A DNA stretch of 49,665 nucleotides, the filler included, from an uncultured virus (IMG/VR IMGVR_UViG_2049941000_000413) (lineage: Duplodnaviria; Heunggongvirae; Uroviricota; Caudoviricetes). It is 38 parts of one record of this genome, joined end to end, with 100 filler letters (N's around TTAATTAATTAA, not from the genome) between each part and the next. Parts side by side here need not be neighbours in the genome. Positions count along the whole stretch, not along the records: positions 41,442 to 41,836 come from IMGVR_UViG_2049941000_000413; 37 more parts are not named here. The stretch is one strand, 5' to 3'. Position numbers and translations under genes: made by a program. Every line of letters begins with the position of its first letter. The first letter of the stretch is position 1. Shown here piece by piece: positions 4,308 through 41,936 of this stretch. The notes under the pieces were generated by a model. The model did not search any database, had not been told where the DNA came from, and saw only the letters and a program-made list of their open reading frames with translations.

Positions 4308-4956
4308 GAAGATTTTCAGTTCAAACTTGTACACGAGTTTCTTTCTGACAATGAATTCTTCAGCGAATTACACGACCTCGTTACACCGAACGAGTTCACA
4401 AACCCATATCTCAAGGAGATTGTATGCATCATCAAGGATTGGTATAGTGAATATGGATTACTGATAGACTATTCCAACCTCAAGACAAAGATACGCTCCA
4501 AGTATACGGATTATATGCTTGACTCATACCTTGCAAGTGTAGAAAAGGTGGAGAAATGTACTACAATTGGGTCGGAGTTCAATAGGCAACTTGCCGAAAA
4601 GTTCTTCAAGCAACAAGCAATAATCAGAACTGCCAACGAGATTCTCAAGATTGCCGGCGATGGAGACATNNNNNNNNNNTCGGGGCCATTGATGAGACGC
4701 TTGAGGGTGGTTTGGGTAAAGAAGAGTTGGGCGTAATCATTGGGCCATCAAGTTTTGGAAAGACATCGCTTACCACTGCGATAGCCGCTTACGCAGCCAC
4801 ACACGGCAACAAAGATGAGAGAGGCTTCAAGGTGTTGCAAATTGTCTTCGAGGACAGAATCAAGCAAATCTGCCGAAAACACTTTGGATACATCACAGGT
4901 ATCGAGGCAAAAGACCAGTCCAAGCCAGAATACGTTGATGAGGTTAAAGAACAGTT
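4308..4956 (+). CDS. DnaB/T4 gp41-like replicative helicase, N-terminal part and Walker A (two contigs)
   Basis: IDETLEGGLGKEELGVIIGPSSFGKT; LQIVFED. Confidence 0.85.
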
Positions 4957-5057: not shown

Positions 5058-5570
5058 GGCGATTTATTTTTCGGCGGTGATTTTGCGGAAGGGAAGGCAT
5101 ACGTCGACTATTTTGATACAGACTACAAACACAGTGTCAAACTGGTTGATGATGGCAAAACCGTTGGCATTATGACTATGTGCAACGACGGGATTGATAG
5201 GTATTGCTGTGGCCTTTTTACGAAAGATGAACCAAAACTTTCGAAACTCTTGAAGAGGTATCGTGGCATAACAGCGATGACTCTCGGTTTGTATGAGAAG
5301 TATCGTGGGCATAAACTCAGTGATAAATTGGTCGAAGCGATGCTTGACAAGTGTCAGAACTTTGACTACATAGTAATTCCAATTGCAAACAAATTGAACA
5401 CCCACACATATTGGGCAAGGTATGGGGCGGAAGAGGTTTATTCTGATGGCACAAACTCATTTTATCTTTTGGTGCAGAATAAAGAACTTAAACATAAACT
5501 TGATAACGCTAAAGGTGTCAATAAAGTTGCAGAAAGCGTAATTAATAGATATTTATTATTAACAATATAA
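5058..5570 (+). CDS. Putative GNAT-family acetyltransferase (5' truncated)
   Basis: LGLYEKYRGHKLSDKLV resembles GNAT motif A; YWARYG resembles motif B. Confidence 0.5.
   Translation, partial: GDLFFGGDFAEGKAYVDYFDTDYKHSVKLVDDGKTVGIMTMCNDGIDRYCCGLFTKDEPKLSKLLKRYRGITAMTLGLYEKYRGHKLSDKLVEAMLDKCQNFDYIVIPIANKLNTHTYWARYGAEEVYSDGTNSFYLLVQNKELKHKLDNAKGVNKVAESVINRYLLLTI
5550..5556 (+). promoter_or_regulatory. TATTTAT putative late-promoter motif
   Basis: Lies about 40 nt before ATG 5595; same motif precedes other genes in the window. Confidence 0.5.
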
Positions 5571-5827: not shown

Positions 5828-6423
5828 AATAAGAGACTTGTGCTTGACAATGACGACATCCTTGAAGTCTATGACAAGTATTGGAAATATACGACAGTCT
5901 CAAATCACGCTGGTGACTATATGATTTTTGGGGTTCCAACTGGAAGCCAGATACTTCACGTGGATTTGGATATGTCGGACATTGGCGTTTTGTCGCAGTC
6001 TCCGAGAGACTTTATGCAACGAGGCTACGACAGAAGTGAATTTGAGAATCCATCACAGTTCAAATACAGTACAAACATTGACACTCTCCCCCAAATATTT
6101 TCTCAAAATCAAACTATTCACGTTTATCCATTCTGGGGCGATGAGACCGAAGACGTCATAGCAATAACAAGGGCTGACATTGAGATTGATTATACATTTG
6201 AAGCCACTTGCGTCTTTATGGGTGCGGTCCTCACAGACAGCGTAAAAAACGACATCGGTGACAAGTGCTCACCATCAAAGACTGCTGGGGAGAACAGGCA
6301 ACTTGTTGCAGCCACCGGAACAATCGAAATGATTCGAAAGACAATTGGTGGTCACGTTGAGCAATTCCAGATACAAGGTGATGACCTTATCGACGAGCAC
6401 GGAGTGTGGTGTTATCAGATTCC
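5828..6423 (+). CDS. Large putative virion structural protein, fragment (likely continues at 15323)
   Basis: Open frame ending GVWCYQI(P); 15323 begins MNLDYV; structural-module context. Confidence 0.55.
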
Positions 6424-6523
6424 NNNNNNNNNNNNNNNNNNNNNNNNNNNNNNNNNNNNNNNNNNNNTTAATTAATTAANNNNNNNNNNNNNNNNNNNNN
6501 NNNNNNNNNNNNNNNNNNNNNNN

Positions 6524-6835
6524 AAGTGTATGCGGAAGGGGTTCCAGGTGAAGTGGTTTCATTCTCGGTCGACAATAGCAATCCAATCAGATTCGGAACC
6601 TTCATTGAAGGAGAGAATGGTACTGATGATGTTTTCACAAGGAACAATAAGGATTTTGTTTTTACAGCAAGCACAATATCACTTGGGAACACTGGCGGTG
6701 TCACATGTACCTTTTCTCATATGGGAAGTGGTTCAAGTTCAGATGTAATGGCGTTCAGAATTGAAAACGATAACGCCAACGCAACTCACAATGTTATGAC
6801 TAGAGCCCCACGATTACTTAACCTCACTGACAACT
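6524..6835 (+). CDS. Putative structural protein fragment
   Basis: Open frame, beta-rich Ser/Thr/Gly composition. Confidence 0.4.
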
Positions 6836-23305: not shown

Positions 23306-23982
23306 ATGATAAAAGTTTTCACAGCGTTTTCTGGGTACGACAGTCAGTGTATGGCACTGGACCGTGCTGGTGTTGACTACGACCTCGTCGGCTGGTCGGA
23401 GATAGACCGGTATGCAATCCAGGCTCACAATGCCGTATACCCCCAGTACGAGAATCGGAACTATGGCGACATCTCAAAAATTAATTGGGACGATGTGCCA
23501 GATTTCGATTTGTTCACCTACTCGTTCCCTTGCACATCAATCAGCAAGGCTGGACTGGAGGAAGGTATGGATGAAGGGTCTGGGACAAAATCGTCACTGT
23601 TGTGGGAATGTCGTAAGGCGATAGAACGCAAGCGACCCAGATTTCTCCTTATGGAGAATGTGAAGAATCTTGTTGGGAAGAAATTTATGCCATTTTTTCA
23701 AGAGTGGGTAAGCATTCTTGACAATCTGGGATATTCCAGCAACTGGGCGATAATGGACGCCAAAGACTTTGGCGTTCCTCAGAGCAGACAGAGAATCATA
23801 ATGGTTTCGACGCTGGATGACAAGTTTTTCCAATTCCCAGAAGGAACACCAACAAAATTGAGGATACGAGACATACTGGAGGCACAACCAGATGAGAAAT
23901 TCTACTTCAGCGAGGAAAAGATGAGGGGAATTATCGAGCACTGCACCTTTAAGAAACCTAAAGGAGAAATCTTTGGTAACCC
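23306..23982 (+). CDS. DNA cytosine-5 methyltransferase (3' truncated)
   Basis: FSGYDS, YGDI, SFPC, ENVKNL, PQSRQR. Confidence 0.92.
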
Positions 23983-24082
23983 NNNNNNNNNNNNNNNNNN
24001 NNNNNNNNNNNNNNNNNNNNNNNNNNTTAATTAATTAANNNNNNNNNNNNNNNNNNNNNNNNNNNNNNNNNNNNNNNNNNNN

Positions 24083-29078: not shown

Positions 29079-29458
29079 TTACAGTTGCATTAGACTTTGA
29101 TGGGACCGTTGTTGAGCATAGATATCCAGAAATCGGCGAAGAAGCCGATGGGGCCGTTGACGTTATGAAGAAATGGGTCGACAAATACAATGTGGGGTTC
29201 ATTCTTGATACAATGAGGGATGGCAAAGAACTTGAAGACGCTATCCAATGGTTTAACGACAGAGGAATTATTCTGTATGGGATTGGGAAGAATCCAACCC
29301 AGAATAGATGGACAACATCGACGAAGTGTCACGCACACTTTTCAATTGACGACCGCAACATCGGTTGTCCAATGAAGGGGGAAGTTGTTGACTGGAAGGC
29401 GATTGACGAAATGATGTCACCTTATTTCGATAAAATTACAACAAATATGACAAAATGA
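29075..29458 (+). CDS. HAD-superfamily hydrolase (BT0820-like)
   Basis: LDFDGTVVEHRYPEIG, terminal IDDRN. Confidence 0.8.
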   Translation: MITVALDFDGTVVEHRYPEIGEEADGAVDVMKKWVDKYNVGFILDTMRDGKELEDAIQWFNDRGIILYGIGKNPTQNRWTTSTKCHAHFSIDDRNIGCPMKGEVVDWKAIDEMMSPYFDKITTNMTK

Positions 29459-29634
29459 CATCTTTATTAACCAAAATATTCACTGGCACGATTCGTGCAC
29501 CTTTCACTGGAAACTTGCTGAGTTGCCCATTCAAGGAATGGTGGCTTGCCCGGAAATATTTCAAGAGACCACGCATCAAGTTCTATTGTGGCAGAATTGG
29601 ACGAAGGTTCGTTGGATTTCGTGCGGAAGACAGC
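29455..29634 (+). CDS. Hypothetical protein N-terminus (may continue at 27759-27927)
   Basis: ATGA-coupled start; not DnaK-like. Confidence 0.45.
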
Positions 29635-29645
29635 NNNNNNNNNNG

Positions 29646-30252
29646 TTTTGAGGCTCTTGAGGCAGCCCACTTGAAACCAGAAGAAATCGATGAGGTTATT
29701 CTTGTGGGTGGTTCAACAAGAATTCCAGCAATCCAGAATCTGGTAAAGAGCGTTTTCGGCAAGGAACCATCAAAGTCGGTCAACCCAGATGAAGCAGTAT
29801 CGCTCGGTGCCGCAATCCAAGGTGCAATCTTGACAAGAGAGGAAGGTGCTGACGACATTGTTCTGCTTGATGTTACCCCAATTTCTATGGGTATTGAGAC
29901 TGCTGGAGGTGTGTTCGCCAAACTTATTGAGGGTAATACCACAATCCCTTGTAAAAAATCGCAGATTTTCACAACAGCAGAGGACAATCAGACAGGTGTT
30001 GAGATTCGTGTTTTGCAAGGTGAGAGACCTATGGCGAATGACAACAAATCAGTGGGCTTGTTCCGCCTTGACGGAATTATGCCAGCACCAAGAGGTGTTC
30101 CTCAAATCGAAGTAACTTTCAACATTGACGCTGACGGCATCCTAAAGGTTACCGCAATTGACAAAGCGACACAGAAAGAGCAGTCAATCACAATCGAGGG
30201 CGGCACCAGTCTGTCAAGCGAGGAGGTCGAGAGAATCAAGGCTGAAGCCAAG
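29646..30252 (+). CDS. dnaK: DnaK (Hsp70), ATPase end and substrate-binding domain
   Basis: [16 protein letters not shown], linker [18 protein letters not shown]. Confidence 0.95.
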
Positions 30253-30263
30253 ANNNNNNNNNN

Positions 30264-30900
30264 GTGGGACGAGTAGCGTACAAGGTTGTGAACGACAACG
30301 GCTACCCCAAAGTAGACATTGAGGGACGCCAGTACACTCCACAAGAGATATCCTCAATGGTCCTCCAGAAGATGAAGCAGACAGCAGAGGCATATCTTGG
30401 CACAGAGGTGAAGGATGCGGTCATCACAGTTCCAGCATACTTCTCGAACAATCAGAAGCAAGCGACAAAGGAGGCTGGTGAAATTGCTGGTCTCAACGTG
30501 CTCAGAATCGTAAACGAACCAACAGCAGCAGCGTTGGCATATGGACTGGATAAGCAAGACAAAGACTTGAAGATTAGCGTGTTTGACCTTGGTGGTGGAA
30601 CCTTTGATATATCAGTACTGGACTTTGGCGATGGTGTGTTTGAAGTTTTGTCAACAAACGGTGACACCCACCTTGGTGGCGACGATTTCGACCAGGTAAT
30701 CGTAAAATGGATAGTGGACACCTTTAAGGAGGAAGAGAACTTTGACCTTACAAAAGACAAAATGGCGTTGCAACGTCTAAAAGAAGCGGCTGAAAAGGCT
30801 AAGATTGAATTGTCAAGTTCATTATCAACAGAGATTAATCTGCCTTACATCACAGCGATAGACGGAGTACCAAAGCATTTTGTAAAGTCACTCACAAGGG
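30264..30900 (+). CDS. dnaK: DnaK (Hsp70), ATPase domain part
   Basis: [32 protein letters not shown]. Confidence 0.95.
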
Positions 30901-31002
30901 NNNNNNNNNNNNNNNNNNNNNNNNNNNNNNNNNNNNNNNNNNNNTTAATTAATTAANNNNNNNNNNNNNNNNNNNNNNNNNNNNNNNNNNNNNNNNNNNN
31001 AG

Positions 31003-31373
31003 TCCAATCAAAGGTTTGTTGTGTCAGTGGCAAAGACATATGCCAGAAACAGCAATCTTATGGACCTCATAAACGAGGGTAACATTGGTATGCTTGAGGC
31101 GGTACGCAAGTTTGACCCTTCTTATGATGTAAAGTTTATATCGTTTGCTGTATGGTACATTAAACGAGCGATATCCTCATACATCATTTCGAGAGACAGA
31201 GCCATTCGCCCATCAAATGTGAGCAAGGTGTATCATCTGAAGTCGCTGGAGACGAGCAAGTTCATCCAGCAAGAAGAGCGCAACCCTACTGAAGAAGAAC
31301 TTTTCGATTTGGTGAATGCCAAACTTGACTCAAAGGTCAAAAGCAAGAGAGATATCCGAAATGTAATTGTGAC
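31003..31373 (+). CDS. Sigma70-family factor, regions 2-3
   Basis: NQRFVVSVAKTY, DLINEGNIGM, KFDP, KFISFAVWYI, RNPTEEEL. Confidence 0.9.
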
Positions 31374-31383
31374 NNNNNNNNNN

Positions 31384-31479
31384 TCGTACTAGTCTCACTC
31401 CCTCACCGAGTATTCTTCTCACGTTGTTCATAACCAGTCTACGTAAATCCGACTCGGTTAATCTAACTCTCTTTTTCAT
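31384..31479 (-). CDS. Protein with LTESDL leader (3' truncated, missed by ORF track)
   Basis: MKKRVRLTESDLRRLVMNNVRRILGEGVRLVR. Confidence 0.65.
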
Positions 31480-31663: not shown

Positions 31664-32086
31664 CTAACGTCTTCTTGACGGAAGTGGTATTTATGCTTTC
31701 CGTCCGGTGTGGTCTCACCCTCAACCTTTTTACGCAGTTTTGATTGCCTTGTGATTGGCTTTGTGTGTGGCCACATATCAGCGGCGATTTGTGCAAGGTC
31801 GATACCGGGAGAACGCAGAGTAGCACGCAATGAGTTCTCAAGCGACTTACTAACGTTCGGGTTTCTGCCGCTGGTGTTTGTTGGGTCTTCTGCGTGGCGT
31901 TCTTCTCTTCGCCTCTCAAGTTCCTTAATCCTATCCTCTCTAGATTGCTTAAAGTTTCTGGGTTTAAGTTTCTTGTATCCCTTTTTAGACTTCTTTTTCT
32001 TATCAGCCTCCATCAGATTGACGGCACGACCGATTTCATATCTTGCTATGTTATTTACTGCTTCTAAAAGATATCTCATATCTGTA
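31664..32086 (-). CDS. Basic hypothetical protein fragment, possibly DNA-binding
   Basis: TDMRYLLEAV...LMEA then Lys/Arg-rich region and IDLAQIAADMWP. Confidence 0.5.
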
Positions 32087-32096
32087 NNNNNNNNNN

Positions 32097-32416
32097 ATAC
32101 TTGGAGTTTCTAAGAATGCGACAGACGAAGAGATAAAGAAAGCCTATCGCAAACTTGCGGTTCAATATCATCCCGACAGACAGCAAGACAAGAGCGAAGA
32201 GGAACGAACTGCCGCCGAAGAGAAGTTCAAGGAAATCGCCGAGGCGTATGAGGTTCTGTCCGATAAGGAGAAGAGGGCCGAATACGACAATCCTATGCGA
32301 GAGTTTAAGTTCTCTGGCAATATAGACCTGGATGAAATCATCAGAAGGTTCAGACAGAACTTTGGTGGTTTTGAATTTGGCGACTTCTTTGGTCAGAACA
32401 ACGCACAACCCTCCCC
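32097..32416 (+). CDS. dnaJ: DnaJ, J domain
   Basis: [35 protein letters not shown]-rich region. Confidence 0.93.
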
Positions 32417-32428
32417 NNNNNNNNNNAT

Positions 32429-32668
32429 CTGTACGATGACGAATCAGAACAGAAACATAAGGATTGGTTGACACACGAACTCCTCAAGGTTTGTACGAAG
32501 CAAGAGAAGGATGTCATATGCTACAAATTTGGAATCGATTGCGAAAGACCCTATTCCACATCAGAGGTTGCAGAGAAACTCGGAAGGTCTGCGGTCACAA
32601 TCAAACACATTGAGCGGAAGGCAATGCGGAAACTCAAGAGTGCGGCACAGAGTGTGAAAATGTATTAA
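32429..32668 (+). CDS. Sigma70 region 4 (C-terminus of the 31003 gene)
   Basis: QEKDVICYKFGI...SEVAEKLG...IERKAMRKLK. Confidence 0.8.
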   Translation: MYDDESEQKHKDWLTHELLKVCTKQEKDVICYKFGIDCERPYSTSEVAEKLGRSAVTIKHIERKAMRKLKSAAQSVKMY

Positions 32669-32677
32669 AAAAATAAG

Positions 32678-32717
32678 AAATGGACAAGTCTTAATGATTT
32701 GTCCATTTTCTTTTTTT
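32678..32717 (+). terminator. Intrinsic terminator after the sigma gene
   Basis: AAATGGACAAGTC / GATTTGTCCATTT stem followed by a T-tract. Confidence 0.8.
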
Positions 32718-32729
32718 GTNNNNNNNNNN

Positions 32730-33394
32730 AAGAGTTTAAATATACCAGACATATTCGATGCAGAGAATGTGACGGAACTACAATCGGAAAGAATTCTCAT
32801 ATAGACACTTGTCCGTATTGTGGCGGTAGCGGGAGAGTTGTAAGTTCTATGGGGGTATGGCAGACCGTGTCTCCTTGCCCGCATTGCAATGGGACTGGAC
32901 AGATAGTACAGAATCCTTGCCGTCGTTGTAGCGGCACCGGATTTGAGACGGAAACCAAAACGATAAGCATAAACATCCCCAAAGGCGTTGCCGACGGAAT
33001 GGCACTGACCATCGTTGGGGGTGGAAATGAGGCACAAGACTCACGAGCAATGAACGGCGATTTACAAATTGTAGTTGAGGTCAAGGAAGACGAGAAGTTT
33101 ACAAGGTATGGAGACAACCTCGTATACCAGTTAAATGTTCCAGTCCTAACTGCCATACTTGGCGGCAAGGTGCCATTTGTATCTCTGGACGGAAAGAATC
33201 TGAAAGCCAAGATACCGCAAGGGGCTGAGAGTGGTGAACGCATCATATTCACTGGTCACGGTCTCCCCAATATAAACAGTGGGGAATATGGCGACCTTTA
33301 TGCTATCTTAAACCTTGTGGTTCCCAAAAAGTTAAATAAAAAAGAGAAGGAGTTACTCAAAGAACTAAAGAAACAAGAGCACTTCAAACAATGA
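32730..33394 (+). CDS. dnaJ: DnaJ, zinc-finger and C-terminal domains
   Basis: Four CxxCxG(xG) repeats, IPKGV, GDL, TGHGLP. Confidence 0.93.
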
Positions 33395-33950: not shown

Positions 33951-34263
33951 AGGGGATGACAGGATAGTTTTCGACAGAAGGATGATGTTCAACCTCGGCT
34001 CTCATTTACTGGAGGATATGGCGATGATTCTTGGTCTTGAGGACCAAGCGATACCCGGTACAGAAAATGACCCAGATGGACGCGCTTACAAGGATGAGGC
34101 GGAGGATTATATGCTCAATCTCCACGACTATCTAAGAGACAATCTGTATGACATTGAAACTCTCATTCACCAGTATGTGACGAGAGGCGGACTAAAACCA
34201 GGTACATACAAGTGCAAGGATAACGAACTTATTTGGGAGCGAGATGGCGAAGAAAAAGAATAA
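33951..34263 (+). CDS. Hypothetical protein, C-terminal part
   Basis: Open frame overlapping the IF3 start. Confidence 0.5.
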
Positions 34264-34477
34264 GGGTATCCAGATAAGGAAATACCGCGTCAATGGGGAA
34301 ATACGCTACTTCGGTAATGTCCGTATTGTTGGAGAGGGAATTGAAACGAGGATTGTCGATTTCAGAGAGGCGAGAAGAATCGCCAACGAGATGGAACTCG
34401 ACCTTATCGAGTTGAACCCAAACGCCGAACCGCCGGTTATGAAAATCGCTTCTTATGAGAAGATGATTTATGAAATG
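34244..34477 (+). CDS. infC: Translation initiation factor IF-3, N-terminal domain
   Basis: RVNGEIR, VRIVGE, ELDLIELNPNAEPPVMKI. Confidence 0.88.
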
Positions 34478-34592
34478 NNNNNNNNNNNNNNNNNNNNNNN
34501 NNNNNNNNNNNNNNNNNNNNNTTAATTAATTAANNNNNNNNNNNNNNNNNNNNNNNNNNNNNNNNNNNNNNNNNNNNCACATTTTATATATA

Positions 34593-34599
34593 ATAAATA
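34593..34599 (-). promoter_or_regulatory. TATTTAT motif, divergent from the early promoter
   Basis: Minus strand reads GTATTTATTATATAT; downstream gene lost at the contig edge. Confidence 0.4.
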
Positions 34600-34625: not shown

Positions 34626-34657
34626 TTTGGTGGATTAAAAAATTGTATATACTTTTG
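34626..34657 (+). promoter_or_regulatory. Bacteroidetes-type housekeeping promoter
   Basis: TTTG (34626) - 20 nt - TACTTTTG (34650), upstream of ATG 34679. Confidence 0.75.
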
Positions 34658-34678
34658 CACCGAGAAACAATTAAAGGT

Positions 34679-35634
34679 ATGAAAAATCAATTCTTAGAAT
34701 CGGCAAATAACAGTAGTAACACAACCCTTACAGAGAACGGCGCAATAGCGTTCTCTACAGTTGGTAGTGCCTTAGCAGACCAGTTTGGAAAGGCTGGCTC
34801 GTATCGTGGTCGTGACATCAAANNNNNNNNNNTTTTCAAGGACCAACAAGAATTGTGGGACGAGGACCCAGACAAGGCTCTGAGGTTCATCTTCTATCTC
34901 CGAAACATTACCAGAAAAGTGAAGGAACTGGATGGCAATGTTACAGAGATTACAATGGGTCAAGGGAATCGAGACGAGTCTTTCAAGAGGCTCCTCTGGC
35001 TCGCCAAATACCAGCCAGACACATTCTATAACAATCTCATTATGATTCCACTCGTTGGAACGTGGAAGGACTTGTGGACATTGTTATATTATGACAAGGC
35101 TCTGGGCGTAGATGCCATCAACTATGTGGGACGAGGGAACATCTACCACACATTAATGTTTGGTATGAAGTATGATTCCAGTGTTGACCTCATAAAGAAG
35201 TATATGCCTCGCATACGTGCTGAGAAGAAGTGTACCACAGACTTCTCAGAACTGATGAATCGTTATGCAAAAGAATTTGCTCGTTATATGAAGGTATCAT
35301 ATGGCGAATATAACAAGTTCAAATCAAGTGGTAATGCACATACATTCCAGCAGTTGATATCTAAACAACAATATGATAAACTGAATTGGAATACGATTCC
35401 AGGTAAGGCAATGCTCTTGATGGCGGCATCAAAGTTTCTGGGCAACCACAATCTTTTGGAGCCGTTCTCTAGTTGGGTTGAAAGCACATTGACGGCAAAG
35501 TTTACTGGCTTTGCCTATGACCTCGTTGGCGTTGCACACAACGCTTTTGCTAATGGTCAAGACGCTCTCAAGATTCTCATCAACAAGCAGTTTGATAGAC
35601 TTGTTGACACTGCTAAAGAGAAGGGCGAACAGAC
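34679..35634 (+). CDS. DUF2828-type (TROVE/Ro-like, vWA-associated) protein, 3' truncated
   Basis: LTENGAIAFST, ALRFIFYLRNI, GQGNRDE, GTWKDL, KYMPR. Confidence 0.65.
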
Positions 35635-35765
35635 CCGTGAGCGAATCAAANNNNNNNNNNNNNNNNNNNNNNNNNNNNNNNNNNNNNNNNNNNNTTAATT
35701 AATTAANNNNNNNNNNNNNNNNNNNNNNNNNNNNNNNNNNNNNNNNNNNNGAGACAACGAGAGTT

Positions 35766-35839
35766 GCTGCTATGGAGTAACCGGTTAACTCGTCTGCCTT
35801 TCACGCAGGAGATTACGGGTTCGAATCCCGTTAGCAGTA
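35766..35839 (+). tRNA. tRNA-Glu (TTC), CCA not encoded
   Basis: Acceptor GCTGCTA/TAGCAGT, D arm GAGT/ACTC, anticodon arm TCTGC-CTTTCAC-GCAGG, T arm ACGGG-TTCGAAT-CCCGT. Confidence 0.93.
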
Positions 35840-35915
35840 CACTGGTGAGTACAGGCCACTGAGTAGTGTCCGGGGTAAGCATATTGATGAACCGGTGTAG
35901 TGAANNNNNNNNNNC

Positions 35916-39483: not shown

Positions 39484-40110
39484 ATGTTACAAAATTTCAA
39501 GTTTATAGATTTGTTTTGCGGAATCGGCGGATTCCATCAGGCAATGACATCTCTCGGTGGTGAATGCGNNNNNNNNNNGCCAGTGATGTCGACAAGGAGT
39601 GTCAGAAGACGTATTACGAGAATTATGGTATCAAGCCAGTAGGGGATATTACAAAGGTAAATGCGGAAGACATAGAACCCTTTAACGTGCTGTGTGCCGG
39701 ATTCCCTTGCCAAGCGTTCTCGAATGGGGGAAAGAAACTTGGCTTCAATGACCCCACAAGGGGAACACTGTTCTTTGATGTAATAAGGATAGCGAAGTAC
39801 CACAAACCAGAGTATATGCTTCTGGAGAATGTGAAAAATCTTGCGACGCACGACCACGGAAAGACTTGGGAAGTGATATACAACTCGATACAAGACGCTG
39901 GGTACAATGTACACAAAGACCCAGTCATTTTCAGTCCGCATTACATAGGTATCCCCCAGAACAGGGGAAGGGTTTTTATAATGTGCATTAGAAAAGACCT
40001 TGGAGACATTCCAGAGTTTGTGTTTGAGAAAAAAGACTTGCCCCAATGTTCAATCAACACCGTCCTCCAAGACGAGTCAGAGATAGAGAACCCAGAGAAA
40101 TACCAACTGN
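39484..40110 (+). CDS. Second DNA cytosine-5 methyltransferase (3' truncated)
   Basis: DLFCGIGG, GDI, AGFPCQAFS, ENVKNL, PQNRGR. Confidence 0.93.
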
Positions 40111-40325
40111 NNNNNNNNNNNNNNNNNNNNNNNNNNNNNNNNNNNNNNNNNNNTTAATTAATTAANNNNNNNNNNNNNNNNNNNNNNNNNNNNNNNNNNN
40201 NNNNNNNNNAAATCAATATGATTGTAAAATCAGTCTCAATAATGGCTGGTGACACCCCAGATGACGTTATGAGGAAAATAAAAGAGATAGAAGAATTTAT
40301 TAACAACAATAAAAAATAAAAAGTT

Positions 40326-41441: not shown

Positions 41442-41534
41442 CATTTCACGAAGAAGGCTGCGACTCTCGAGAATCCGAATAGCCGCCTCCGCAATCATAG
41501 CATTGACATCATTTTCTGTCAGTCTGTATATCAT
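41442..41534 (-). CDS. Protein with LTEND leader (3' truncated, missed by ORF track)
   Basis: MIYRLTENDVNAMIAEAAIRILESRSLLREM; TATTTAT at 41562-41568 upstream. Confidence 0.65.
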
Positions 41535-41583
41535 CTTTTGTTCAAATATGCTATTTTTATAATAAATACATCATTAACATATA

Positions 41584-41628
41584 AAATGGTCTGACGGAAG
41601 TTAAAAAAACAAACTCGCCAGACCATTT
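41584..41628 (-). terminator. Hairpin terminator downstream of the ncRNA candidate
   Basis: Minus strand AAATGGTCTGGCG ... CGTCAGACCATTT followed by TATAT. Confidence 0.7.
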
Positions 41629-41634
41629 ATGAGT

Positions 41635-41734
41635 AAAAGGAGAGCAACCGATGGTTCAGCACGAGCCCCTATTTTATAAAAGTATGAAAAAGTCATCAGC
41701 CTAAGCCTGCTTCAGCGGCATCGCATCACCCTCC
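41635..41734 (-). ncRNA. Candidate ~100-nt structured RNA of unknown family
   Basis: 5'/3' 15-bp stem with 4 G-U pairs and one bulge, 3' UUUU, TATTTAT 5 nt upstream, terminator downstream, intergenic. Confidence 0.6.
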
Positions 41735-41738
41735 GATA

Positions 41739-41745
41739 ATAAATA
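41739..41745 (-). promoter_or_regulatory. TATTTAT motif immediately upstream of the ncRNA candidate
   Basis: ATATTTATTAT then C-GGAGGG start of the stem. Confidence 0.55.
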
Positions 41746-41936
41746 TATACCCAAATTCGTTTATGGACCTATTGGTTCAATTATTCCTCCCTCTATTGGC
41801 GTTTTGTAGTCTTCAAGGTCCTCTTTTTTGTTGAGCNNNNNNNNNNNNNNNNNNNNNNNNNNNNNNNNNNNNNNNNNNNNTTAATTAATTAANNNNNNNN
41901 NNNNNNNNNNNNNNNNNNNNNNNNNNNNNNNNNNNN

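Follow-up and report, generated by a model that had tools for sequence, protein, structure and literature searches.

The window analysed here is a 49,665-nt stretch of DNA from an uncultured virus (IMGVR_UViG_2049941000_000413), in which about 45 kb of visible, fragmented genome is strung together by N44-TTAATTAATTAA-N44 linkers. The fragments are not in genome order. The candidate RNA falls within a single 395-nt piece, positions 41442-41836 and, because the window is a chain of fragments, reliable context is limited to this piece. Reading along its minus strand, the 3′ end of a protein gene is followed by a promoter-like 10-mer (TATTTATTAT), a 100-nt body, a hairpin resembling an intrinsic terminator, a second copy of TATTTATTAT and the 5′ end of the next protein gene (Table 1). 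The stop codon that an earlier note on this DNA had assigned to the upstream gene was confirmed as TAA at 41763-41761, and the body begins 26 nt past it.

Table 1 Features of the candidate locus and of the Ro60-fold gene in the same window.
Feature	Position	Strand	Description
3′ end, preceding protein gene	41761..41836	-	24 codons plus TAA
Promoter-like 10-mer TATTTATTAT	41736..41745	-	Stops 1 nt short of the candidate RNA's first G
100-nt candidate RNA body	41635..41734	-	G41734 to U41635
P1	41734-41719 with 41653-41639	-	Read from sequence and pairing
Four G[CG]UGA[AU][GC] copies	41730-41724, 41716-41710, 41700-41694, 41660-41654	-	Earlier read as C, D′, C′ and D boxes
Internal loop	41718-41708	-	Read from sequence and pairing
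Possible P2	41707-41698 with 41667-41658	-	Read from sequence and pairing
U-rich loop	41697-41668	-	30 nt; read from sequence and pairing
UUUU	41638-41635	-	End of the 100-nt body
Overlapping 31-aa ORF	41696-41601	-	First 21 codons inside the invariant block
Intrinsic-terminator-like hairpin	41579..41626	-	11-bp stem, 19-nt loop, tail UUUAUAU
Second TATTTATTAT	41559..41568	-	24 nt ahead of the ATG of the next gene (41534)
5′ end, next protein gene	41442..41534	-	31 codons, up to the end of the piece
Ro60-fold gene (DUF2828 + vWA)	34679..35650	+	Cut by a linker; different fragment of the window

Promoter-like boxes, terminator and fold

The sequence TATTTAT, previously reported at 41745-41739, is present and forms part of the 10-mer TATTTATTAT. 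Four exact copies of TATTTATTAT occur in the window (5550 on the plus strand; 34599, 41568 and 41745 on the minus strand), all read as lying outside ORFs, and two of them stand 24-45 nt ahead of an ATG. With at most one mismatch allowed, 9 matches were observed against 4.7 expected, and the density of the 7-mer core is some 8-fold higher in non-coding sequence. A fragment of a phage sigma factor is also encoded in the window.

Beyond the body, a separate terminator hairpin and a fresh promoter-like box had been described; both are found, the hairpin at 41626-41586 with its stem formed by 41626-41616 and 41596-41586, and the box as TATTTAT within the second TATTTATTAT. When the hairpin is included, the fold of the resulting 160 nt has a z-score of -2.52. 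A single contig from an RNA library (X19) spans 41442-41514 alone; it stops short of the candidate and is therefore silent on its transcription.

The end stem of the body, P1, was likewise borne out: 15 bp formed by nt 1-10 and 12-16 with nt 82-96, one bulged G (G11) and four G-U pairs (5-92, 7-90, 8-89 and 10-87). These G-U pairs work on the minus strand only, as had been claimed, and the fold reaches -27.0 kcal/mol on this strand against -18.6 kcal/mol on the plus strand. Unusual stability was not found for the 108-nt fold (z-score -0.23, with 78 of 200 shuffles equally good). In the ensemble, the outer 7 bp of P1 pair with probabilities of at least 0.98 and the inner 8 bp with probabilities of 0.35-0.74, while nt 44-58 of the U-rich loop are 66% unpaired.

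Constraint among strain variants

The sole relatives found were strain variants in rumen metagenome contigs. The comparison uses three short contigs (X6, X17r3 and X17r1), 90-95% identical to the window; X6 and X17r3 form one lineage, and two of the three have a depth under 5 (X17r1, depth 4). For X6, 21 differing letters were counted, of which 15 substitutions and 1 insertion were placed, the rest being assumed to lie near the ends of the piece. Within the body, X6 and X17r3 show no change at any of the 100 positions and X17r1 shows three at the 60 positions covered. The body thus has 3 variable sites per 100, against 19 in the adjacent 100 nt of spacer and terminator (Fisher p 4.3e-4); in the coding parts on either side, 4 of 93 and 2 of 64 sites vary. 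X6 and X17r3 are identical to the window over an unbroken run from 41630 to 41748, and in simulations a run like this arose by chance with a probability of 0.005-0.04 (X6) and 0.001-0.004 (X17r3).

The promoter-like boxes share in this constancy. The TATTTATTAT directly before the body is unaltered in all strain variants, and the second copy sits in an invariant run (41549-41575) inside the 100-nt stretch that holds the 19 variable sites. The protein of the next gene is kept, with 0 or 1 amino-acid change in each variant contig. At the 3′ end of the preceding gene, X6 carries two changes, one synonymous and one Glu to Gln, and X17r3 carries an indel.

Although it has undergone many changes, the terminator hairpin is kept in each of the three variant contigs, with fold energies of -22.2 to -25.5 kcal/mol. 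The changes are mostly shifts between G-U and G-C on one side of the stem, as at 41594 (G-U to G-C) and 41596 (G-C to G-U). This pattern suggests that the intrinsic terminator has been kept by selection, as expected of an independent small RNA gene, and it is more likely that the transcript would end at the terminator, at about 41580, than at the UUUU ending at 41635. The three X17r1 changes within the body (nt 72, 73 and 77) each strengthen the helix 28-37/68-77, and together turn P1 into the minimum-energy fold. As the P2 helix was read off the variant's own fold, the fit of these changes to it is post hoc.

Could a block of this kind be conserved by chance, or could the spacer beside it have been replaced by recombination with a more distant allele? 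The comparison comprises three low-depth contigs that represent two lineages, the genomes of phages are mosaic, and the X17r3 indel lies at the end of the upstream gene, all of which would suit a functionless block. The divergence of the spacer, however, is 11-13%, about the neutral rate obtained from the flanking codons (3 synonymous changes over about 38 sites, a rough estimate), and at a neutral rate of that size 100 nt without change would be very unlikely. In addition, 11 further runs from 9 studies show the same word share of 0.31 which, taken as a share of sampled words, would fit a long identical block. We therefore regard a functionless block as improbable. Since the body stays unchanged in the X6/X17r3 lineage and little changed in X17r1 while the adjoining DNA varies, the element is probably a small non-coding RNA gene.

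A 31-aa ORF overlaps the body and provides a coding alternative, since it exists as an open frame whose first 21 codons fall inside the invariant block. The earlier note had named codon-level conservation of this ORF as one finding that would overturn its RNA reading; the ORF is not kept in the variants. Its stop codon is lost in the X6/X17r3 lineage through an insertion of A or AA, and the two resulting tails differ. All four X6 substitutions within the ORF alter an amino acid; X17r1 has an Arg to Tyr replacement and four others alongside one synonymous change. The conserved block also reaches 38 nt upstream of the ATG. Judged on the loss of the stop and the mostly non-synonymous changes, the stretch appears to be non-coding, and a small protein product is highly improbable.

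A cis-acting RNA element, instead of a separate gene, is a further alternative. The layout, a conserved body with a variable terminator behind it and a co-directional gene after that, is the one seen in a riboswitch or attenuator, and the body starts so close to the upstream stop that it might instead serve as a stability or processing element in the 3′ UTR of the upstream gene, rather than as a leader or attenuator of the next one. Against a cis role stand the unaltered promoter-like 10-mers, one directly before the body and one between the terminator and the next gene. The one competing helix that could join the body to the terminator's 5′ arm amounts to 5 bp (ACCAU with AUGGU, read from the sequence), and no Rfam cis-regulatory family matches. 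Taken together, we consider a cis-acting element unlikely.

Searches for homologues

That the candidate is undescribed, as the earlier note proposed, agrees with a scan against Rfam, in which no family matches it. No homologue was found by blastn in distant mode among the 50,697 phage records of INPHARED, and model R1 found nothing in five huge INPHARED phages. In IMG/VR, a 26-mer, a gapped stem pattern and two 17-mers returned no true homologue; the 22 loci seeded by the 17-mers all scored E > 1 with model R1 and were discarded. A 24-mer had no match in GTDB genomes. A gapped pattern gave four matches there, in soil MAGs, and a 20-mer gave three GC-rich matches in JGI metagenomes; all seven were rejected as chance matches.

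The neighbouring proteins, used as bait in IMG/VR, yielded no true relatives. The upstream 281-aa protein has one partial match among 5.8 billion proteins and none in phage records. A relative with 23% identity is encoded in one record (G018), and downstream of its gene there is just a terminator and a TATCTTTG promoter. The phage lineage that carries the candidate was seen in rumen metagenomes only.

Repeated motifs in the body

The body holds four copies of the 7-mer G[CG]UGA[AU][GC], which coincide with the boxes described in the earlier note. Their order, C-D′-C′-D, was confirmed as GUGAUGC (nt 6-12), CUGA (nt 20-23), CUGAUGA (nt 36-42) and CUGA (nt 76-79), as were the spacers of 7 nt (C-D′) and 33 nt (C′-D). 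For motifs that were defined after being seen, none of 20,000 mononucleotide shuffles reached four copies of the 7-mer, and about 1 in 20,000 reached three copies of GCUGA. The last 7-mer copy becomes GCCGAAC in X17r1 (plus-strand 41658 A>G; D box CUGA to CCGA; depth 4).

The lead reading of the earlier note was a box C/D-type or TIGR-type guide RNA acting with a Nop or L7Ae-like protein. The motif order is real and the repetition non-random, and two possible stacks can be read from the sequence: G8-A79, A9-G78, U10-U77 and G11-C76 on one side, and G38-A23, A39-G22, U40-U21 and G41-C20 on the other. Canonical k-turns have tandem G-A pairs followed by a U-U and a G-C stack. Several features nonetheless count against this assignment. 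ACCAU after D (nt 80-84) cannot pair with GGAG before C (nt 1-4), its complement lying 13 nt further on; with the D box 17 nt away from where the stem ends, C and D are left without a flanking terminal stem. In addition, the strand that carries the C box is engaged in P1. The C box consensus is RUGAUGA, which GUGAUGC matches at 6 of 7 positions, its final A being replaced by C. Box C/D guide spacers are about 10-21 nt long, upstream of D and D′, and those of the candidate fall outside this range. Finally, the D box is CCGA in one strain, so the boxes are not conserved.

No C/D covariance model of Rfam overlaps 41635-41734 at E ≤ 10. The three snoRNA matches listed sit off the body, at 41515-41585 and 41786-41822, with E-values of 0.7-3.9. 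Nop, L7Ae and fibrillarin domains were not found in the 75 ORFs of the window scanned against Pfam, drawn from the roughly 45 kb of fragmented genome visible, in keeping with the previous remark that no Nop-domain gene was in view.

The TIGR variant of the guide-RNA assignment calls for an array, whereas the element occurs once: neither blastn-short nor a covariance model found a paralogue in the window. The tigRNAs are units of 36 nt or roughly 54 nt in tandem arrays, each with two 8-12-nt spacers and with boxes of CCA type plus UG, and the arrays adjoin a Tas gene with a Nop domain (PMC12045711; bioRxiv 10.64898/2026.09.09.750476). With no flanking terminal stem, an imperfect C box and a mutable D box, the claim of a box C/D or TIGR guide RNA fails, and we hold it to be extremely improbable. 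A hammerhead reading of CUGAUGA was also discarded: the flanks, read from the sequence, are unpaired and Rfam gave no match.

The same four copies, as direct G[CG]TGA[AT][GC] repeats within 77 bp, might be bound as DNA by a regulator or by a replication or packaging protein. Conservation of the sequence without strong thermodynamic structure would be compatible with this. One copy is altered in a natural variant, however, and the block is framed on one strand by a promoter-like box and a terminator. The end pairing needs its G-U pairs, which favours RNA over DNA, and related phages often have the 7-mer in their coding repeats, so that it is not a specific signal; a triple-motif pattern run over 46 records matched only acidic coding repeats. 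A role for the block as DNA thus seems very unlikely.

A Ro60-fold protein in the same window

A protein with a DUF2828 and a vWA domain is encoded on another fragment of the window (Table 1); the earlier note had not seen it. A full-length relative, 86% identical, was modelled at a pLDDT of 92.4, and the best-ranked PDB matches of the model, all at E ≤ 0.001, are Ro60/TROVE proteins, including 1yvr (E 8e-9, TM 0.55) and 9kop from phage phiLo. A profile search against the PDB found Ro60 at E 0.0014. Hundreds of phage contigs in IMG/VR encode the protein; many have lengths of 200-412 kb, and Bacteroidota-type promoters occur in several. A full-text literature search for 'DUF2828' found no functional literature on this Ro60-like family.

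The presence of this protein in the same window leaves a Y-like role possible for the candidate. Y RNAs are 80-130 nt long, their 5′ and 3′ ends forming a long stem, and have a large internal loop (PMC4201824), and phage Ro60 proteins with Y-like RNAs have been published (PMC12135203). At 100 nt, with a 15-bp bulged end stem and large internal loops, the candidate fits the general description. In addition, GCUGAAG (nt 19-25), the closest approach to the Ro60 motif, differs from GNCGAAG at a single position, and in X17r1 GCCGAA arises at nt 75-80. The resemblance noted earlier stands as far as architecture is concerned and breaks down at the Ro60-binding motif: GNCGAAN0-1G (bacteria), CGAA (phage phiLo) and GGUCCGA (vertebrates) were each tested, and all three are absent from the sequence of the predicted 160-nt transcript. 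There is no tRNA-like domain of the YrlA type and no match to an Rfam Y RNA; ARAGORN and Rfam report only a tRNA-Glu, at 35766-35840.

Known Y RNAs adjoin the Ro60 gene; the candidate and the Ro60-fold gene are on separate fragments whose order is not genomic. Run over the 3 kb around each of 80 related Ro60-like genes and over 30 whole IMG/VR records, model R1 gave no match, and at 16 of the 80 loci the flanks are plain terminators and promoters.

A Y-like partner of this very divergent Ro60-type ring protein would dock through the bulged stem or the GCUGA repeats instead of GNCGAA. Its loops might tether a host nuclease or gate the entry of other RNAs, so that during infection a host RNA-decay enzyme would be tethered or gated. 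To the Y-like role as such we give little credence, and this particular mode of docking and tethering is equally improbable.

Proposed function of the candidate

The idea of a phage ncRNA was upheld in one part and set aside in another: support was found for a non-coding element under constraint that has its own promoter-like box and terminator, and none for kinship to box C/D RNAs. We tentatively favour, with slightly less than even confidence and from sequence comparison, a stand-alone gene for a small non-coding RNA in a large phage of the cattle rumen, assigned to no known family and acting in trans. In this proposal, transcription would start just past TATTTATTAT, near G41734, and would end at the U-tailed hairpin near 41580, giving a transcript some 155 nt in length. 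Its body would be made up of the first 100 nt, closed by P1 and enclosing the internal loop, the possible P2 and the 30-nt U-rich loop.

As to how such an RNA might act, the leading idea is that the mostly unpaired U-rich loop, with its anti-start triplet CAU, pairs with A-rich start regions of phage or host mRNAs; taken by itself, we regard this as possible, if rather doubtful. Neither a paralogue nor a strong antisense target was found in the window. Part of the loop (nt 44-58) can pair over 15 bp, one of them G-U, with positions 34672-34686, a segment that spans the Ro60-like gene's start codon; this pairing ranks second in the window. Because 25% of shuffled loops bind some start region equally well, this pairing was rejected as evidence and is kept as a lead.

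To our knowledge, few small RNAs are known from the very large phages of gut and rumen Bacteroidota. The candidate offers a concrete small RNA with defined predicted ends from a large rumen phage. If it binds the Ro60-fold protein, it would be the first RNA partner for a Ro60-like family common in such phages; if it is only a lineage-specific regulatory RNA, it would be ordinary.

Comparison with known systems

Small RNA genes that run from a promoter to a terminator are a generic kind in bacteria and phages and form no single family. The candidate resembles them in being intergenic, with its own promoter-like box, a structured body and a 3′ terminator hairpin, and in being non-coding, its body conserved and its terminator variable. 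It differs from the small RNAs described so far in matching no Rfam family and in being found in one rumen phage lineage.

With attenuating riboswitches and leaders it shares a conserved structured domain that precedes a variable terminator and a co-directional gene. Unlike them, it has a promoter-like box between terminator and gene, no convincing anti-terminator and no match in Rfam.

The order of UGAUG-type and CUGA motifs and the possible tandem G-A pairing recall archaeal and eukaryotic box C/D guide RNAs, from which the candidate departs in lacking a terminal stem around its boxes, in its imperfect C box and in a D box that is not conserved. TIGR-Tas tigRNAs are phage-borne, as the candidate is, and both have been termed 'box C/D-like'; the candidate is nevertheless one 100-nt unit with motifs of the RUGAUGA and CUGA types.

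Like Y RNAs, it is about 100 nt long and has a bulged end stem, large internal loops and a pyrimidine-rich loop, with a Ro60-fold protein encoded in the same window. The YrlA-like RNAs of bacteria and phages are set apart from it by their Ro60 motif, their tRNA-like domain and their Rfam match.

A constrained candidate small-RNA gene

On the minus strand of the window, a promoter-like box, a 100-nt body (numbered from G41734 = nt 1) and a terminator-like hairpin follow one another, as listed in the table. The earlier note had described the upstream stop, the box, the body with its motifs, the hairpin and a new box, all of which lie where it had placed them. Its proposal of a separate transcription unit stands as regards the promoter-like box and the retained terminator, whereas transcription itself is a prediction from sequence. 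We tentatively read the locus, at a little under even chances, as a separate small-RNA gene of ~155 nt that would extend from the promoter-like box as far as the terminator and enclose a constrained 100-nt body. The element is real and constrained, is probably transcribed, as predicted, and matches no known RNA family; its known range is one rumen phage lineage.

Coordinates of the candidate locus and of further gene fragments
Feature	Position	Strand	Remark
Preceding ORF end	TAA 41763-41761	minus	read from sequence
Promoter-like 10-mer TATTTATTAT	41745-41736	minus	18 nt past upstream ORF end
Candidate 100-nt body	G41734 to U41635	minus	starts 1 nt after TATTTATTAT
Terminator-like hairpin (11 bp, 19-nt loop, U-rich tail)	41626-41586	minus	8 nt beyond UUUU
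Second TATTTATTAT	41568-41559	minus	between hairpin and downstream gene
Next gene ATG	41534	minus	3' of second TATTTATTAT
IF3 N-terminal domain fragment	34244-34522		in the window
DnaK fragments	29455-30953		in the window
DnaJ fragment	32043-33391		in the window
C5 cytosine methylase, two pieces	23306-24031 and 39564-40154		in the window

Short fragments, separated by N44-TTAATTAATTAA-N44 linkers and N10 gaps, make up the window. The fragments are out of genome order, the C-terminal half of Hsp70 (29455-30273) standing ahead of its N-terminal half (30264-30953), so that gene neighbourhood within the window is not to be trusted. Likewise, a ribonucleotide reductase gene ends at profile position 157/523, with a baseplate gene coming next. 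The dependable context of the candidate is the 395-nt piece at 41442-41836 only; an 8,260-nt contig from one public run is colinear with it from 41442 to 41824, which identifies it as a true genomic segment.

Strain variation

By a word index, the piece occurs in metagenomes of the bovine gut and rumen, with the same 0.31 share of sampled words in 11 runs from 9 studies. Contigs of four runs were compared with the window, and three of them, the strain variants X6, X17r3 and X17r1, are 90-95% identical, at low depths (11, 4 and 4). Changes in the body number 0/100, 0/100 and 3/60 covered positions, respectively, against 12/100, 11/100 and 13/100 in the adjacent spacer and terminator; for X6, 21 differing letters were counted, of which only 15 substitutions and 1 insertion were placed. 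Pooled over the three contigs, variable sites amount to 3/100 in the body versus 19/100 in the spacer (Fisher p 4.3e-4), and to 4/93 and 2/64 in the two coding flanks. Constraint on the body is thus similar to that on protein-coding sequence, whereas the adjoining spacer drifts. The identical run, 41630-41748, spans the promoter-like box through UUUU, and a run of this kind has a simulated chance of 0.005-0.04 in X6 and of 0.001-0.004 in X17r3, two values that are not independent because these contigs represent one lineage.

Codon-level conservation does not account for this pattern. In the X6/X17r3 lineage, an insertion of A or AA abolishes the stop of a 31-aa ORF at 41696-41601 and leaves different tails, and all four X6 substitutions within the ORF alter the amino acid; X17r1 carries a two-base Arg to Tyr replacement, four further replacements and a single synonymous change. 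We therefore reject the ORF as a protein; its conservation at codon level was among the outcomes that the earlier note had named as refuting its proposal.

The terminator hairpin is retained in all three variants (-22.2 to -25.5 kcal/mol), with stem shifts at 41594 (G-U to G-C) and 41596 (G-C to G-U), and the second TATTTATTAT lies within an unchanged island (41549-41575) amid variable spacer. A 151-nt contig of another run (X4, record 8) matches the window only at the terminator-loop stretch 41577-41612, beyond which its sequence differs, with a TATTTATTTTT-like box at the end. A comparable terminator-promoter junction seems to be present elsewhere.

Exact copies of TATTTATTAT number four in the window, the two of this locus and those at 5550-5559 (+) and 34590-34599 (-), each read from context as outside ORFs: two stand 24-45 nt ahead of an ATG, one ahead of the candidate RNA and one at a fragment end. 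This recurrence, the ~8-fold higher density of the 7-mer core outside ORFs than inside, and a sigma-70 region-2 fragment at 31021-31389 fit a phage-specific promoter class, to which TATTTATTAT may belong.

Folding of the body

In the end stem P1, nt 1-10 and 12-16 pair with nt 82-96 (15 bp, G11 bulged, four G-U pairs). The fold energy of the 108-nt stretch does not exceed chance (z -0.23), and the value of -2.52 obtained with the terminator included is due to the hairpin. Folding is more favourable on the minus than on the plus strand (-27.0 versus -18.6 kcal/mol), in agreement with the G-U pairs of P1. In the minimum-energy fold, P1 is of high probability in its outer 7 bp only, the inner 8 bp having P 0.35-0.74, and the U-rich loop (nt 38-67) is 64% unpaired in the ensemble. 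With the three body changes of X17r1 (nt 72 C>U, 73 G>A and 77 U>C), the 15-bp P1 becomes the minimum-energy fold, and each change strengthens a second helix, 28-37/68-77 (U-G to U-A, A-C to A-U and G-U to G-C); one of the three disrupts a pair in the window's own minimum-energy fold. This agreement, noted post hoc, is suggestive of changes that favour P1 and the second helix.

The candidate also contains G[CG]UGA[AU][GC] four times and GCUGA three times, far above 20,000 mononucleotide shuffles, the former motif having been defined after inspection of the candidate. Acidic coding repeats of related phages are also rich in this 7-mer; its four copies here are spread over three different frames.

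Family searches and phage gene content

The sole Rfam find over the window is a normal tRNA-Glu (UUC; 67.6 bits, 35766-35840 (+)) on the fragment following the Ro60-like gene described below. With the threshold relaxed to E <= 10, no family overlaps the candidate. No relative was found in INPHARED, IMG/VR, JGI metagenomes or GTDB genomes, and a covariance model built from the candidate (R1) found nothing in five huge phage genomes. The proteins of the window (UvsX-like recombinase, baseplate gp25, tail lysozyme, Hsp70, DnaJ, IF3 domain, sigma-factor fragment, ribonucleotide reductase and two C5 methylases) indicate a large phage; IF3, DnaK, DnaJ and C5 methylase content is typical of very large phages, and the closest counterparts of the Hsp70 piece are in 630-735-kb uncultured phages and in Lak phages.

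A Ro60-fold protein and a putative target

The earlier note had missed a Ro60-fold protein encoded at 34679-35650 (+). Pfam assigns DUF2828 to it, and a full-length, 86%-identical relative additionally has a vWA domain whose D-x-S-x-S site is invariant. Ro60 in the PDB is matched at E 0.0014 by a profile built from 60 relatives. For the AlphaFold model of the 86%-identical relative (pLDDT 92.4), the matches ranked highest are Ro60/TROVE structures, all at E <= 0.001 and including a Thermus phage protein; the match to 1yvr has E 8e-9 and TM 0.55. The modelled fold of this DUF2828 and vWA protein matches Ro60/TROVE over its full length. In IMG/VR, tblastn confirmed 390 related stretches, many on 200-412-kb contigs; a full-text literature search on 'DUF2828' returned unrelated papers only.

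TAnnTTTG boxes of Bacteroidota type occur in the window at 34649-34656 (+) and 48197 (-). Such boxes precede the Ro60-like gene and many IMG/VR relatives (L015, L018, L021, L043, L061 and others), which points to Bacteroidota hosts. On a further IMG/VR phage contig, L035, a group I intron match (6313-6534 (+), 73.5 bits) lies ~1.7 kb downstream of a Ro60-like gene.

For the candidate small-RNA gene, we favour a mechanism in which the U-rich loop, with its anti-start triplet CAU, would pair with A-rich start regions. Loop nt 44-58 (41691-41677, minus) are predicted to form 15 bp, one of them G-U, with 34672-34686 (+), spanning the start codon of the window's Ro60-like gene. This is the best start-region site and the second-best overall in the window, and as strong a pairing to some start region arises with 25% of shuffled loops; we treat the pairing as a lead, not as evidence.

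Comparison with known RNA systems

The motifs GUGAUGC (nt 6-12), CUGA (nt 20-23), CUGAUGA (nt 36-42) and CUGA (nt 76-79) do follow the order C-D'-C'-D, as had been proposed, and by the k-turn rules a stack of G-A, A-G, U-U and G-C could form in each motif pair. The defining box C/D layout nevertheless fails: a stem directly flanking C and D is impossible, the C-box strand is already paired within P1, the final C-box letter is C, the D' spacer is only 7 nt, and the D box becomes CCGA in one strain. We reject this reading. A scan of 75 ORFs of the window, outside which most of the genome lies, turned up no Nop, L7Ae or fibrillarin domain. According to PMC12045711 and a 2026 bioRxiv preprint, tigRNAs form tandem arrays of 36-nt or ~54-nt units, carry CCA-type and UG boxes and adjoin a Nop-domain gene; none of these features is seen at the candidate.

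A Y-like role, for which the window offers a Ro60-fold protein as a putative partner, is kept as a reading of low probability. Searches with R1 gave no match next to 80 related genes or across 30 whole records (105-413 kb), and the flanks of 16 of those loci show only terminators and, in many, Bacteroidota-type TAnnTTTG promoters. In one IMG/VR relative, L055, a weak, long tRNA-like match (4637-4722 (+), 38.7 bits, 86 nt) starts 14 nt past the stop codon of its Ro60-like gene and could be a Y-like tRNA mimic. The candidate itself is without the GNCGAAN0-1G, CGAA and GGUCCGA binding motifs and without a tRNA-like domain; the likeness to Y RNAs raised in the earlier note holds for its general shape, which fits their description in PMC4201824.
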